IMG/VR virus record: IMGVR_UViG_2737471862_000006
Length of the DNA stretch: 19,368 nucleotides
DNA from: a virus
Taxonomy: Duplodnaviria; Heunggongvirae; Uroviricota; Caudoviricetes
Strand: one strand, 5' to 3'
The translations under genes and the position numbers were made by a program. Shown piece by piece: positions 6,811 through 17,915 of this stretch. Position 1 is the first letter of the stretch. Each line of letters begins with the position of its first letter. A model generated the notes under the pieces. It did not search any database. It was not told where the DNA came from and worked only from the letters and a program-made list of their open reading frames with translations.

Positions 6811-7467
6811 TCACAAAATTCTGAGAGTTTCTAAGATGGATAAAAGTGTTGGAAGCTGACTCTCTCTCACACGGAATCTACCCGTCCTAGATAATTCCGT
6901 TTCAATTCCGTTAACGAAGAAATGTACGGAATCAAAAACGGCCGAACTATTCATGTATTTATTCTGATAAATTTCTTGGAGATTCTTTGAGCTTACTATT
7001 TTTGTCTTTGCTAAAGTAAAAGGATCAACAGAGATATTAGATAGAGACATGGATTTTATCTTGATGTCAAAGCCCTCAGAAAGACCATTTACAATTTTTC
7101 TCAGATCAAATTCTACTGGTCTCAAGCCACTATCTTCACCAAATAGTTTTTGCACCATAGTATAAGGCACTTTCATACTTAATGGAGGATTAGTGGCATA
7201 TAGTATGATTTTTTTCCCTTGTCTGACGCCAAAGTCCACATTTAAGTAAGTTGCTATTTCAACCTCTGAACGCTCGCCATTAGCATATTCTAAGCTTTGC
7301 TTGCTAATGCTTCTCATGGTAAATCTTAGTTTAAGCACTTCAGAGTTATTAATGATTTGAAAACCATATCCTTTATCTTCATCATAGAGGTTGTCATTTA
7401 CTTTATGTAATAACTCACTTTTAGTTATATCCTTTTCTGCTTTATAAATTTTTACCTTTATCATCAT
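6811..7467 (-). CDS. Hypothetical protein, cassette gene C (218 aa from the ATG at 7467)
   Basis: ATG at 7467 overlaps the stop of gene B (ATGA) and is preceded by SD AGGAGG; AT-rich codon usage; no recognisable motifs. The track ORF start at 7494 is a TTG. Confidence 0.6.
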   Translation of the reverse strand: MMIKVKIYKAEKDITKSELLHKVNDNLYDEDKGYGFQIINNSEVLKLRFTMRSISKQSLEYANGERSEVEIATYLNVDFGVRQGKKIILYATNPPLSMKVPYTMVQKLFGEDSGLRPVEFDLRKIVNGLSEGFDIKIKSMSLSNISVDPFTLAKTKIVSSKNLQEIYQNKYMNSSAVFDSVHFFVNGIETELSRTGRFRVRESQLPTLLSILETLRIL

Positions 7468-8711
7468 CCAGCCTCCTGATTCAAAGTCTCGCAAGACATA
7501 GCTTTCGTTACTGGGTATCGCTTGGTATGCTCTTCGATAATAAAGTCATTAATCAAAAATATTTTATCTTCTAATTGTTTCATGACTTGATCAAAGTCTG
7601 CGTCACTGAGTTTTTCTCTCTCTGCGGATGCAGAGTTGCTTTCTTTGTATAACGCTCTGAATTTTATATTTTTCCCAAGATATTTATCATCGAAACTAAG
7701 TTCAAAAGTTATAGTATGATTCTTAACTACTGAGGAAAATGACTTCCATCGAATTAAGCTTCGATAAAACCCATCACTGCACAGTTCCTTAATTTGAGGT
7801 GCGTTCACTAATGATAGGCCATCATACGCGGCATTGTTAATGTTAAAAGTTAGGTTTTCATCATCGTCAGATGCCATTTCCTGATTATTAATGTCATCAT
7901 CATTTTCGTTATCTGTAGAAGGTGAAATCTTGTTTAATAACTCTTGTGTTTCTTCGTTATTATTTCCTTCGAGATTATCTCCATTAATATCCAGAGATGT
8001 TTTTATTCTGCTTACTCTAACCTTTTCAAGACCAGCATATTCAAGTCCTGTTTTTTTATAATTTCCATCAAAATCATAAAGATGAACAGCAAAAATATTC
8101 CTAAGATCTGTATCGACGATACTTGATAAATCTATTTCGTTGACAACTATGTTGTTACAAACTGTTGATGAATATGTATCAATTATTTGCTTGAGAATTT
8201 CTGAAATGCGTGGCGTATAGTTATATCTTACTGAAACATATCCTTTTTTTACTATAAAAACTATACTCCCACTGTACAATTTTTTCTGCTGAAACTTACC
8301 CCTTCTAAAATCAAACTCAGTATAATCAATAGATATATGATAGGTTTGCAAGCCTGAGTAATGATCAATTTTCTCATGCCCTAGCAACTTGGGTCTATTT
8401 TCTTTCACTTTGTTTACAACGTCATAGAGTTTCTCTATATCAAATTCTTCATATATACGTTTTACTGAGAAGACGTCTTGGCTGGGTTTGGTTGCCAGTT
8501 TATCTTGTACTTCTCTGATGTGATTATATGAAAATGGCAGGTCTGATAATTTTTCTATCAATACCTCTTTTGATAAGTTAGATGGGAAAATTATCCCTCT
8601 ATTGAAGGCGATTTTCCTTAATGTAACATCTGTGATTTTTGCACTGTTAGAGTGGAGGGCGGTATAAATGTCACTTTCGTTTGAAAACAACGTAGCTTGA
8701 TATTTATTCAT
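7464..8711 (-). CDS. Hypothetical protein, cassette gene B (415 aa) with acidic low-complexity central region
   Basis: ATG with SD AAGGAG, 10 nt after the stop of gene A; central Asp/Asn/Glu-rich stretch (NNNEETQ...DNENDDDINNQEMASDDDEN); no Walker or other motifs recognised. Confidence 0.6.
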   Translation of the reverse strand: MNKYQATLFSNESDIYTALHSNSAKITDVTLRKIAFNRGIIFPSNLSKEVLIEKLSDLPFSYNHIREVQDKLATKPSQDVFSVKRIYEEFDIEKLYDVVNKVKENRPKLLGHEKIDHYSGLQTYHISIDYTEFDFRRGKFQQKKLYSGSIVFIVKKGYVSVRYNYTPRISEILKQIIDTYSSTVCNNIVVNEIDLSSIVDTDLRNIFAVHLYDFDGNYKKTGLEYAGLEKVRVSRIKTSLDINGDNLEGNNNEETQELLNKISPSTDNENDDDINNQEMASDDDENLTFNINNAAYDGLSLVNAPQIKELCSDGFYRSLIRWKSFSSVVKNHTITFELSFDDKYLGKNIKFRALYKESNSASAEREKLSDADFDQVMKQLEDKIFLINDFIIEEHTKRYPVTKAMSCETLNQEAG

Positions 8712-8721
8712 GTCATACTCC

Positions 8722-9813
8722 TTATGAAAAGTGACATTTTCTATTCACCTGCTTGCTGGCAACCTGGTACTCAAATATAGATAGCTTTTGATTAACAAAA
8801 GGAATGGATACTATTTTTTCCTTTAACGTTTCTATATGAGATTGAGTGAAAGAATATATTCCTATGTAATCATTAATGGCGGATTGCAAATGAATGCTTG
8901 AGTGTGATGAGAACGGAGTTATAACAAATATTTTGTCAAATTGATTGAGTAATTGATAGTTAAATATATACTCTAAAAGAAATATAAAGTGGTTACTGGA
9001 ATCAACCTCTTCCTTCCAGAATATATTCAATATTTTATTTCTTATTCTATCGCCACCATCATTTCTAATATATTCGTGTTCATATGAGTAAAAAATCATC
9101 CCAGATGTTATCATTTCAATTGTGGCTGGAAGGATTTTCCCTTTCGTTGCTATTTTATTATGTTTGTCAGGGTAAAAATATGTACAGTTCTCTATCTCAG
9201 GAATTTTTTGCCATAACATATTTGTTTCTTGTGTTACTTTGTCAGTAATTCCTCTTCTAGTCTCGATGTGTTCTGTAACATCTAGTAAAAATCTGATCAT
9301 AGTTGGGTCAAAAACGGCAATCACAGAGTTCTCTGGAAAATCATAACTTGCTGTGGCTGCTCCATTTAATTTCTCAATTAAATCAGAGTCATATTTATTG
9401 TCATGATTATATATAAAAAGTAGGCCGTTAACTTGATATTTCTCATTTGTGCTGTCAACAAATAGACGCCGCCACTCAGGACTTCTTGGCGCGCAAGCTA
9501 CCTGTTGTGATAAACTTCGTACAGTGTTCAATATTGATTTTGTACCGTCAAGCGTGCTGGCACAATAAGATTTTAAATCTGTTTGTATATACTGAGTTAT
9601 ATCTGAATAAGGATCTTTATATTTGAAGACTACATCCGTAGGATGAGTTTTTTTTGGGTTTTCAGATAAAAGTTGTTTAGCGTTTAGATGAGATCTCAAA
9701 CAACAGTCCCAACTTATATCCGTTGTATTTTGGGTTTTCCAGCCTAACTCATCAAAAATTCTACTGGAAATGATACCTGCAATCTCATCAATATTCTTAG
9801 TTTCGCCGCCCAC
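8722..9813 (-). CDS. Hypothetical protein, cassette gene A (363 aa, GTG start)
   Basis: GTG start preceded by SD GGAGGA; possible but weak PD-(D/E)xK-like pattern near the N-terminus (HPTDVVF ... IQTDLKSY); no confident family assignment. Confidence 0.55.
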   Translation of the reverse strand: MGGETKNIDEIAGIISSRIFDELGWKTQNTTDISWDCCLRSHLNAKQLLSENPKKTHPTDVVFKYKDPYSDITQYIQTDLKSYCASTLDGTKSILNTVRSLSQQVACAPRSPEWRRLFVDSTNEKYQVNGLLFIYNHDNKYDSDLIEKLNGAATASYDFPENSVIAVFDPTMIRFLLDVTEHIETRRGITDKVTQETNMLWQKIPEIENCTYFYPDKHNKIATKGKILPATIEMITSGMIFYSYEHEYIRNDGGDRIRNKILNIFWKEEVDSSNHFIFLLEYIFNYQLLNQFDKIFVITPFSSHSSIHLQSAINDYIGIYSFTQSHIETLKEKIVSIPFVNQKLSIFEYQVASKQVNRKCHFS

Positions 9814-13982: not shown

Positions 13983-16583
13983 ATGAGCACAAAACCACTC
14001 TTCCTGTTACGGAAAGCGAAAAAATCATCCGGTGAACCTGACGTCGTCCTGTGGGCAAGCAACGATTTTGAATCGACCTGTGCCACTCTGGACTACCTGA
14101 TCGTTAAGTCAGGTAAAAAACTGAGCAGCTATTTTAAAGCTGTTGCCACGAATTTTCCTGTCGTTAATGACCTGCCCGCTGAAGGTGAGATCGATTTTAC
14201 CTGGAGTGAACGCTATCAACTCAGCAAAGACTCCATGACATGGGAACTAAAACCGGGAGCAGCACCAAACAACGCTCACTATCAAGGCAATACCAACGTC
14301 AACGGCGAAGACATGACTGAGATTGAGGAGAATATGCTACTCCCAATTTCTGGCCAGGAACTGCCCATTCGTTGGCTTGCTCAACACGGCAGCGAAAAAC
14401 CGGTAACGCACGTTTCACGCGACGGACTCCAGGCATTACACATTGCTCGGGCTGAAGAACTACCGGCTGTTACTGCCCTGGCTGTTTCCCACAAAACCAG
14501 CCTGCTCGACCCGCTGGAAATTCGCGAACTCCACAAACTGGTTCGTGACACTGACAAAGTTTTCCCTAATCCTGGTAATTCAAACCTGGGACTGATAACT
14601 GCTTTTTTCGAAGCATACCTGAACGCTGACTACACCGATCGAGGACTGCTGACAAAAGAGTGGATGAAGGGTAATCGTGTTTCACACATCACTCGCACGG
14701 CTTCCGGTGCTAATGCTGGCGGCGGAAACCTCACCGATCGCGGCGAAGGTTTCGTACACGATCTGACGTCACTGGCGCGGGACGTAGCCACTGGCGTACT
14801 GGCCCGTTCAATGGATCTGGACATCTATAACCTTCATCCGGCACACGCTAAACGCATTGAGGAAATTATCGCTGAAAATAAACCGCCCTTTTCTGTTTTC
14901 CGCGACAAATTCATCACCATGCCTGGCGGGCTGGATTATTCCCGCGCCATCGTGGTTGCGTCCGTAAAAGAAGCACCAATTGGGATCGAGGTCATCCCCG
15001 CGCACGTCACTGAATATCTGAACAAAGTACTGACTGAAACCGATCATGCCAACCCTGATCCGGAAATCGTGGATATTGCCTGCGGTCGCTCCTCTGCCCC
15101 GATGCCGCAGCGAGTAACAGAAGAAGGAAAACAGGATGATGAAGAAAAACCGCAACCATCTGGAACAACGGCAGTTGAACAGGGAGAGGCTGAAACAATG
15201 GAACCGGACGCAACTGAACATCATCAGGACACGCAGCCGCTGGATGCTCAGTCACAGGTAAATTCTGTTGATGCGAAATATCAGGAACTGCGGGCAGAAC
15301 TCCATGAAGCCCGGAAAAACATTCCATCAAAAAATCCTGTCGATGCCGATAAATTGCTTGCTGCATCACGTGGTGAATTTGTTGACGGAATTAGCGACCC
15401 GAACGATCCGAAATGGGTAAAGGGGATCCAGACTCGCGATTGTGTGTACCAGAACCAGCCAGAAACGGAAAAAACCAGCCCGGATATGAATCAACCTGAG
15501 CCAGTAGTGCAACAGGAACCGGAAATAGCCTGCAATGCCTGCGGCCAGACTGGCGGGGATAACTGCCCTGACTGTGGTGCGGTGATGGGCGACGCAACAT
15601 ACCAGGAAACATTCGATGAAGAGAGTCAGGTTGAAGCTAAGGAAAATGATCCGGAGGAAATGGAAGGCGCTGAACATCCGCACAATGAGAATGCTGGCAG
15701 CGATCCGCATCGCGATTGCAGTGATGAAACTGGCGAAGTCGCAGATCCCGTAATCGTAGAAGACATAGAGCCAGGTATTTATTACGGAATTTCGAATGAG
15801 AATTACCACGCGGGTCCCGGTGTCAGTAAGTCTCAGCTCGATGACATTGCTGATACTCCGGCACTGTATTTGTGGCGTAAAAATGCCCCCGTGGACACCA
15901 CAAAGACAAAAACGCTCGATCTAGGAACCGCTTTCCACTGCCGGGTACTTGAGCCGGAAGAATTCAGTAACCGCTTTATCGTAGCACCTGAATTTAACCG
16001 CCGGACAAACTCCGGAAAAGAAGAAGAGAAAGCGTTTCTGAGGGAATGCGCAAGCACAGGAAAAACGGTTATCACTGCCGAAGAAGGCCGGAAAATTGAA
16101 CTCATGTATCAGAGCGTTATGGCTTTGCCGCTGGGGCAATGGCTTGTTGAAAGCGCCGGACACGCTGAATCATCAATTTACTGGGAAGATCCTGAAACAG
16201 CAATTTTGTGTCGGTGCCGTCCGGACAAAATTATCCCTGAATTTCACTGGATCATGGACGTGAAAACTACGGCGGATATTCAACGATTCAAAACCGCTTA
16301 TTACGACTACCGCTATCACGTTCAGGATGCATTCTACAGTGACGGTTATGAAGCACAGTTTGGAGTGCAGCCAACTTTCGTTTTTCTGGTTGCCAGCACA
16401 ACTATTGAATGCGGACGTTATCCGGTTGAAATTTTCATGATGGGCGAAGAAGCAAAACTGGCAGGTCAGCTGGAATATCACCGCAATCTGCGAACCCTGG
16501 CTGACTGCCTCAATACCGATGAATGGCCAGCTATTAAGACGTTATCACTGCCCCGCTGGGCTAAGGAATATGCAAATGACTAA
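13983..16583 (+). CDS. recE: Exodeoxyribonuclease VIII (RecE), 866 aa
   Basis: Full-length 866-aa ORF with the acidic central region and C-terminal nuclease domain characteristic of Rac RecE; followed by an overlapping recT. Confidence 0.95.
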
Positions 16584-17385
16584 GCAACCACCAATCGCAA
16601 AAGCCGATCTGCAAAAAACTCAGGGAAACCGTGCACCAGCAGCAATTAAAAATAACGACGTGATTAGTTTTATTAACCAGCCATCAATGAAAGAGCAACT
16701 GGCAGCAGCTCTTCCACGCCATATGACGGCTGAACGTATGATCCGTATCGCCACCACAGAAATTCGTAAAGTTCCGGCGTTAGGAAACTGTGACACTATG
16801 AGTTTTGTCAGTGCAATCGTACAGTGTTCACAGCTCGGACTTGAGCCCGGTAGCGCCCTCGGTCATGCATATTTACTGCCTTTTGGTAATAAAAACGAAA
16901 AGAGCGGTAAAAAAAACGTTCAGCTAATCATTGGCTATCGCGGCATGATTGATCTGGCTCGCCGTTCAGGTCAAATCGCCAGCCTGTCAGCCCGTGTTGT
17001 CCGTGAAGGTGACGAGTTTAATTTCGAATTTGGCCTTGATGAAAAGTTAATACACCGCCCAGGAGAAAACGAAGATGCCCCTGTTACCCACGTCTATGCT
17101 GTCGCAAGACTGAAAGACGGAGGTACTCAGTTTGAAGTTATGACGCGCAAACAGATTGAGCTGGTGCGCAGCCAGAGTAAAGCTGGTAATAACGGGCCGT
17201 GGGTAACTCACTGGGAAGAAATGGCAAAGAAAACGGCTATTCGTCGCCTGTTCAAATATCTGCCCGTATCAATTGAGATCCAGCGTGCAGTATCAATGGA
17301 TGAAAAGGAACCACTGACAATCGATCCTGCAGATTCCTCTGTATTAACCGGGGAATACAGTGTAATCGATAATTCAGAGGAATAA
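16576..17385 (+). CDS. recT: RecT single-strand annealing protein, 269 aa
   Basis: ATG at 16576 overlaps the recE stop (ATGACTAA); [35 protein letters not shown]... matches RecT. Confidence 0.95.
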
Positions 17386-17440
17386 TTCAGCCTGGCGGTG
17401 TAATGCACCGCCAACTTGAAATATTTTTATGAGAAAAATT

Positions 17441-17635
17441 ATGAGATATGACAATGTTAAACCATGTCCATTTTGTGGTTGTCCATCAGTAACGGTGAAA
17501 GCCATTTCAGGATATTACCGAGCGAAGTGTAACGGATGCGAATCCCGAACCGGTTATGGTGGAAGTGAAAAAGAAGCACTCGAACGATGAAATAAACGAA
17601 CCACTGGAAATAATAATGGAGGTGTTCATGTATAA
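17441..17635 (+). pseudogene. ralR: ralR toxin (restriction-alleviation / DNase) interrupted by an in-frame TGA at codon 50
   Basis: MRYDNVKPCPFCGCPSVTVKAISGYYRAKCNGCESRTGYGGSEKEALER then TGA (17588-17590), then in-frame NKRTTGNNNGGVHV and TAA (17633-17635); total 64 codons as in K-12 RalR, where this codon is TGG (Trp) by my recollection. Confidence 0.65.
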
Positions 17636-17816
17636 AATTACCGCCACTATTGAAAAGGAAGGTGGCACTCCTACTAACTGGACAAGATATTCAAAATCTA
17701 AACTAACGAAATCAGAATGCGAAAAAATGCTCTCAGGTAAAAAAGAAGCAGGCGTTTCCAGAGAGCAGAAAGTAAAACTGATAAATTTTAATTGCGAGAA
17801 ACTTCAGTCCTCGTGA
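17628..17816 (+). CDS. rcbA: RcbA/YdaC-like protein, 62 aa
   Basis: MYKITATIEKEGGTPTNWTRYSKSKLTKSECEKMLSGKK...; ATG overlaps the end of the ralR frame; SD GGAGGTG. Confidence 0.65.
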   Translation: MYKITATIEKEGGTPTNWTRYSKSKLTKSECEKMLSGKKEAGVSREQKVKLINFNCEKLQSS

Positions 17817-17915
17817 ATTGCATTGTATTCAAATTAAAACTTCATAGCTGATTATTAATAATCAACATCGGGCGTCAATTTAAGTCTAACATTGGCGCCT
17901 GCCAGAGGTGATGCG

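Follow-up and report, generated by a model that had tools for sequence, protein, structure and literature searches.

The closest described system to the locus studied here is the RalR/RalA pair of Escherichia coli K-12, a type I toxin-antitoxin system that is already known from the prophage Rac. In K-12 MG1655, ralR (b1348; 195 nt, 64 codons) lies in this cryptic prophage between recT and rcbA/ydaC, and ralA (b4714), which specifies the antitoxin sRNA, is located on the strand opposite ralR. The toxicity of RalR was shown under conditions of IPTG-induced overproduction (PMC4041452). Error-prone PCR of RalR yielded changes at residues 14, 37, 39, 49, 51, and 52 that lowered toxicity; replacement of residues 43 to 46 abolished it; and the purified RalR K52Q variant did not cleave DNA (Guo et al. 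2014, PMC4041452). The allele described below is itself already present in RefSeq, as WP_001443846.1. A literature search for a truncated ralR allele found no paper discussing it, and the main text of a 2025 review on restriction-modification (PMC12707154) contains neither "Lar" nor "RalR" as a whole word.

A premature stop at codon 50 of ralR

We analyzed a stretch of DNA of 19,368 bp (here called the window), which is 100% identical over its entire length to the chromosome of E. coli ES5 (NZ_CM184343.1, positions 830291 to 849658). A 451-bp segment around the site of interest matched 1,922 of 5,426 complete E. coli genomes, and the genes annotated under these matches were recT, ralR, and the gene for a DUF1187 protein. 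The gene under study is ralR (formerly lar) of a Rac-type prophage integrated beside ttcA in E. coli; according to both the source-record annotation and that of K-12, it follows recET and precedes ydaC-xisR-intR.

The ralR frame opens with an ATG at 17441 and runs through 49 sense codons (MRYDNVKPCPFCGCPSVTVKAISGYYRAKCNGCESRTGYGGSEKEALER) to a TGA at 17588 to 17590. Beyond this TGA, 14 further sense codons follow in frame up to a TAA at 17633 to 17635. An alternative in-frame ATG is present at 17429, four codons upstream of 17441, and we adopted the start at 17441, which is the one annotated in K-12. Direct reading of the window reproduced exactly the frame coordinates and the stop after 49 codons that had been reported in a first-pass annotation of this DNA. 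The full RalR length that it had proposed for the interrupted frame was likewise correct, since the frame comprises 64 codon positions plus a stop and equals K-12 ralR in this respect. The region is organized as follows.

16576 to 17385, plus strand: recT, upstream in the recE-recT-ralR block (source-record annotation)
17441 to 17590, plus strand: truncated ralR ORF, consisting of 49 codons and the premature TGA and carrying the CPFCG...CxxC zinc-ribbon part of RalR/Lar (Pfam, NCBIfam, PGAP)
17563 to 17578, plus strand: 16-nt RalA-pairing site in the ralR mRNA (AAGTGAAAAAGAAGCA, codons 41 to 46) (sequence, repeat finder, PMC4041452)
17585 to 17587, plus strand: CGA codon for Arg49 (AGA in K-12), a synonymous difference linked to the TGA; CGA TGG occurs in other strains as well
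17588 to 17590, plus strand: premature stop TGA at codon 50; K-12 and every other sampled allele have TGG (Trp50) there (MG1655 alignment, 12-locus table)
17591 to 17635, plus strand: former C-terminal 14 codons of ralR (NKRTTGNNNGGVHV) and the original TAA, now untranslated, with N51, K52, and R53 of the family motif
17618 to 17622, plus strand: Shine-Dalgarno sequence GGAGG of the downstream gene, within the former 3' end of ralR, as is the start of that gene
17628 to 17816, plus strand: ydaC/rcbA homologue (DUF1187, 62 aa; Pfam PF06688, 132 bits; annotated in ES5)
17634 to 17812, minus strand: RalA antitoxin sRNA gene (Rfam RF02694, 225.1 bits against a gathering threshold of 170, model positions 1 to 179 of 179)
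17735 to 17750, minus strand: 16-nt repeat in ralA (plus-strand AGGTAAAAAAGAAGCA), also inside ydaC; the RalA complement of this repeat base-pairs with ralR mRNA

Two mechanically called ORFs over the site (17556 to 17816 on the plus strand and 17507 to 17668 on the minus strand) were set aside as frame artefacts of ydaC and of its antisense strand.

In a pairwise alignment, the ralR region of the window showed 99% identity to MG1655, and only two differences were found within ralR. Position 17585 is C in the window and A in K-12 (CGA versus AGA, both Arg49), and position 17590 is A in the window and G in K-12 (TGA versus TGG, Trp50). The lesion is thus one G-to-A transition, TGG to TGA (W50*), together with an adjacent synonymous change. 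The presence of Trp at this codon in K-12, which the first-pass annotation had given, was confirmed by the AGA TGG (Arg49-Trp50) of MG1655, and its proposal that a single TGG-to-TGA change truncates ralR is supported in concert by this alignment, by the allele table, and by the family scores described below. The chance that 14 codons stay open in random sequence is about one-half, and the length of the tail alone is therefore insignificant; the tail is meaningful because it is base-for-base the same as that of K-12.

Residues removed by the truncation

RalR is a 64-aa product that includes residues 51 and 52, whereas the frame in the window stops at codon 50. The residues of the Lar zinc ribbon (C9, P10, F11, C12, G13, C30, and C33) are all present in the truncated product. 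In the C-terminal W-N-x-R motif of the Lar family, by contrast, a stop replaces the W, and N-K-R lies untranslated downstream. Against the Pfam family PF14354 (Lar_restr_allev), the truncated sequence scored 39 bits, down from 53.5 bits; positions 2 to 52 of the 58 profile positions were covered, and positions 53 to 58 were lost. Against the NCBIfam RalR equivalog model NF007260, the 49-aa product scored 126.9 bits (cut-off, 113) over model positions 1 to 49 of 64, and the restored 64-aa sequence scored 166 bits. Annotation pipelines raise no flag at this locus, since the 49-aa fragment still passes the NF007260 cut-off.

A profile of database homologues was searched against 1.84 billion representative proteins, and 3,968 relatives were recovered. 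C9, P10, F11, C12, G13, C30, C33, W50, N51, and R53 were invariant among short single-domain relatives (75 of 75 and 78 of 78), in a sample drawn from the best-scoring of the 3,968, which is biased to motif-keeping proteins and makes the estimate somewhat optimistic. Because W50, N51, and R53 are among the invariant positions, the stop costs the protein three invariant residues, the first through its own insertion and the other two through the loss of what follows.

We used an AlphaFold2 model of a full-length homologue with 92% identity (mean pLDDT of 77, and 85 to 88 over residues 11 to 50) to place the stop. The model consists of a zinc-ribbon hairpin (strands 17 to 22 and 25 to 30) followed by a single helix at residues 43 to 52, with a low-confidence tail at residues 54 to 64. 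The stop cuts this only predicted helix at its last turn. For placing W50, a sequence search for a solved Lar-family structure returned none, with only spurious CbpD matches, and a Foldseek search against the PDB returned only weak zinc-ribbon matches (E above 0.07).

Judged from the published point mutants and from conservation, the 49-aa RalR is most likely nontoxic and devoid of DNase activity. Toxin inactivation, one of the options that the first-pass annotation had put forward, is strongly favored, given the loss of W-N-x-R and of residues 51 and 52 (PMC4041452).

We also considered that the 49-residue fragment might keep a function other than that of a DNase, such as Lar restriction alleviation or dominant-negative interference with another, intact RalR copy, and might be kept by selection. 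The fragment does hold all four cysteines and the beta-hairpin (modeled with a pLDDT of 85 to 88), it scores above the family cut-offs, and the allele is frequent and occurs in several pathogenic lineages; moreover, two ralR-like places are present in several carriers. However, outside the cysteines no part of the Lar family is better conserved than the missing W-N-x-R, and because of that conservation, an activity typical of the family would be expected to need it. In addition, a change at residue 49 and changes at residues 43 to 46 already reduce or abolish toxicity, which suggests that the helix is critical. We consider a retained function of this kind unlikely.

Other C-terminal lesions were seen among database variants of E. 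coli RalR (P0012, P0015, P0005, P0003, and P0002). Two of them are RalR-YdaC fusions with junctions at short direct repeats, two have frameshifted tails, and one carries a W50S substitution. In P0012, the fusion junction coincides exactly with the 16-nt ralR/ralA repeat, and this fusion would also delete part of ralA. These independent lesions, as read from the database sequences, suggest recurrent loss of RalR function.

RalA, ydaC, and the possibility of readthrough

As expected for a type I pair, the RalA gene is located on the strand opposite ralR and has 16-nt complementarity to the ralR coding region. No difference from MG1655 was found over the RalA span (17634 to 17812). The two 16-nt repeats share 11 contiguous identical bases, matching the description in PMC4041452, and the pairing site in ralR is undamaged, its end lying 10 nt ahead of the TGA.

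Position 17738, the fourth position of the 16-nt repeat in ralA, is T here and in K-12 and is G in five compared loci; the G would alter one RalA-ralR base pair in those strains. A sigma-70-like promoter match pointing to ralA (TTGACG, 16-nt spacer, AATAAT; 10 of 12) was found at 17851 to 17878 on the minus strand. The annotated 5' end of RalA (17812) lies about 40 nt downstream of it, and this spacing is not an exact fit to the mapped 5' end.

The ydaC ATG falls within the old 3' end of ralR, 38 nt past the new stop. Since ydaC has its own GGAGG and the new stop is placed at that distance upstream of its ATG, no strong polar effect on ydaC would be expected. The TGA that ends the ydaC/rcbA homologue at 17814 to 17816 is also present in all 11 non-K-12 loci compared; the resulting 62-aa length fits the 61-position DUF1187 profile. 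K-12 ydaC has AGA at that codon and continues for 7 more codons, to 69 aa, and on this comparison the C-terminal extension of K-12 RcbA looks like a derived, strain-specific state.

A different reading of the intact surroundings is that the allele is leaky, with near-cognate decoding of UGA by tRNA-Trp restoring exactly the wild-type RalR in a small share of translation events that varies with conditions and thereby leaving a dampened but working pair. Among the stop codons of E. coli, UGA is the leakiest; it is decoded mostly as Trp, at rates that depend on context and increase when the temperature is low or nutrients are scarce (PMC11126739), which favors this reading. Moreover, the original residue is Trp, so that the readthrough product would be exactly wild type, and the 14 downstream codons and RalA are fully intact. 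Against it, no stimulatory structure is found downstream of the TGA: RNA from 17580 to 17650 folds with a minimum free energy of -6.4 kcal/mol (z-score, +0.62; 148 of 200 shuffles fold as well), and its only pairing begins more than 25 nt downstream of the TGA. The intact tail is explained by a recent mutation and by the overlap with the Shine-Dalgarno sequence and start of ydaC. In addition, RF2 is more active in most natural E. coli than in K-12, and the recET-ralR operon is silent unless derepressed. Because published toxicity needed IPTG overproduction, a percent-level product would be unlikely to have consequences when the operon is normally silent. Rare readthrough, which the first-pass annotation had also left open, is formally possible and would restore the exact wild-type toxin, nothing suggests that it is programmed, and a leaky but working pair seems quite improbable to us. 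Very improbable is the further idea of a translationally throttled toxin, in which the dosage of RalR would be set by termination efficiency (temperature, starvation, RF2) on top of RalA; if true, it could explain the persistence of the allele and of its intact tail in major STEC lineages. Selenocysteine insertion and structure-stimulated readthrough were rejected on the basis of the missing downstream structure and of the invariant Trp of the family.

Frequency and origin of the TGA allele

Alleles were counted among the 5,426 complete E. coli genomes by exact match of a 71-mer centered on the site.

CGA TGA (form in the window): exact 71-mer in 310 genomes
AGA TGG (K-12 form): exact 71-mer in 1,119 genomes
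CGA TGG (intermediate form): exact 71-mer in 122 genomes

The TGA allele accounts for about 16% (about one in six) of the ralR-carrying complete genomes, in a set so heavily skewed to laboratory K-12 and outbreak STEC that such proportions are descriptive and not population estimates. Carriers include O157:H7 F6294, strain E2865, and O26, O111, and O103 STEC from many laboratories, and several of them have two ralR-like places per genome. The exact 49-aa protein was found on at least 1,000 contigs in a collection of 15 billion proteins. In ES5, PGAP annotates a 150-nt ralR encoding this protein (WP_001443846.1), without a pseudogene flag. A reference RalR ending at the same position, which the first-pass annotation had named as evidence against its own reading, thus exists, but only nominally: WP_001443846.1 is the product of the same allele, and Trp is found at this position in all other alleles and in all distant relatives.

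The remaining option of the first-pass annotation, a sequencing or assembly error in this record with TGG as the true codon, has nothing in its favor beyond the prior possibility attached to any single-base difference and can be discarded in view of the identical 71-mer shared by 310 complete genomes that many laboratories produced on many platforms, the exact protein on at least 1,000 contigs, and the constant linkage of TGA to the synonymous CGA variant.

One record, NZ_CP124740.1, is labeled "O157:H7 str. EDL933" and measures only 5.14 Mb, presumably less than expected for EDL933, and its strain label may be wrong. Carriage by O157:H7 was confirmed in a separate genome, that of F6294.

In an allele table of 12 loci, TGG was present in all eight non-TGA loci (K-12, three O145:H28-type loci, three RM13322-type loci, and strain 442/2), and the homologues of Salmonella and Citrobacter have Trp at the same position. 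By this comparison of sequences, TGA is the derived state. The four TGA loci are mutually identical across ralR-ydaC and differ from K-12 there only at 17585, 17590, and 17814, and a RecT protein accession is common to three of the four carriers. This pattern agrees with a single mutation that arose on a K-12-like haplotype and then spread, either along with the prophage or through recombination; repeated mutation is formally conceivable as well. For a lesion that is purely neutral, the frequency of about 16% in this set is high, and selection or hitch-hiking could have contributed to it.

Other features of the prophage

The prophage has a mosaic structure unlike that of K-12 Rac, with the lysis genes rzpD, rrrD, and essD directly beside trkG. 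TolA-domain ORFs and a TehB-family gene are also present in the window, at least 80% of which is covered in only 120 of the 5,426 genomes. The sRNA family STnc100 (Rfam RF02076) was matched over its full length at 2681 to 2867 on the minus strand, with 86.6 bits (gathering threshold, 47); the match lies in the lysis-gene region of the prophage and adjoins essD. Three co-directional minus-strand ORFs were also seen at 6811 to 9813, inside the Rac-like prophage.

8722 to 9813, minus strand: 363-aa PD-(D/E)XK nuclease (PADLOC-DB PDLC03004 Hp1, 3e-40)
7464 to 8711, minus strand: 415-aa ORF (PADLOC-DB PDLC03005 Hp2, 1e-10)
6811 to 7494, minus strand: 227-aa ORF (PADLOC-DB PDLC03006 Hp3, 4e-11)

These ORFs match three consecutive PADLOC-DB models in order, which suggests a candidate anti-phage defence cassette. 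Two of the three are labeled "hypothetical protein" in RefSeq.

Discussion

We interpret ralR W50* as a natural nonsense allele that leaves a toxin-null type I pair, resulting from gene decay in a cryptic prophage, and we assign this reading a probability of roughly 80%. A single G-to-A transition made W50*, so that translation from the annotated start ends after 49 residues. The product keeps its four-cysteine zinc ribbon and loses the end of the predicted helix together with Trp50-Asn51-x-Arg53, and it is probably neither a DNase nor toxic. Because we infer the truncated protein to be nontoxic, the locus would be a RalR/RalA pair whose toxin is null and whose antitoxin gene is an "orphan." The persistence of ralA probably results from its position antisense to the ydaC/rcbA coding sequence, and probably also from the mutation being recent or being neutral in a normally silent operon; independently of this, the ydaC reading frame that overlaps ralA constrains the ralA sequence.

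As such, ralR W50* is most likely a case of routine gene decay in a cryptic prophage and opens no new biology. It matters nonetheless for the reading of genomes. About one-sixth of the ralR-carrying complete E. coli genomes in this skewed set, including O157:H7, O26, O111, and O103 STEC, encode a RalR without residues that were shown to be required for DNase activity, and pipelines still name the fragment RalR toxin, which calls for caution in annotation. In toxin-antitoxin counts, and wherever the RalR/RalA phenotypes of K-12 (fosfomycin response, restriction alleviation) are considered in pathogens, the allele should be treated as probably null.

The locus shares with RalR/RalA of K-12 Rac (PMC4041452) the synteny recE-recT-ralR-ydaC-xisR-intR at ttcA and DNA that is 99% identical, and the RalA gene, both 16-nt pairing repeats, and RalR residues 1 to 49 are all identical. 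It differs in having TGA rather than TGG at codon 50, with a product of 49 aa versus 64 aa that lacks W50, N51, K52, and R53; in encoding Arg49 by CGA rather than AGA; and in having a ydaC homologue of 62 aa, compared to 69 aa in K-12. With the Lar family (PF14354; TIGR03655 anti_R_Lar), the product has the CPFCG...CxxC zinc ribbon in common, and despite the truncation its scores exceed both family thresholds, whereas the invariant C-terminal A-x-x-x-W-N-R-R signature of that family is lost here to the stop. Finally, the locus resembles the decayed chromosomal type I toxins, such as the mostly inactive hok/sok loci of E. coli K-12 (cited in PMC4041452), in that a simple lesion disables the toxin ORF and the RNA partner stays. 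In contrast to hok/sok, however, the toxin in question is a soluble zinc-ribbon DNase and not a membrane peptide, and the antitoxin gene overlaps ydaC, which alone may explain its preservation.
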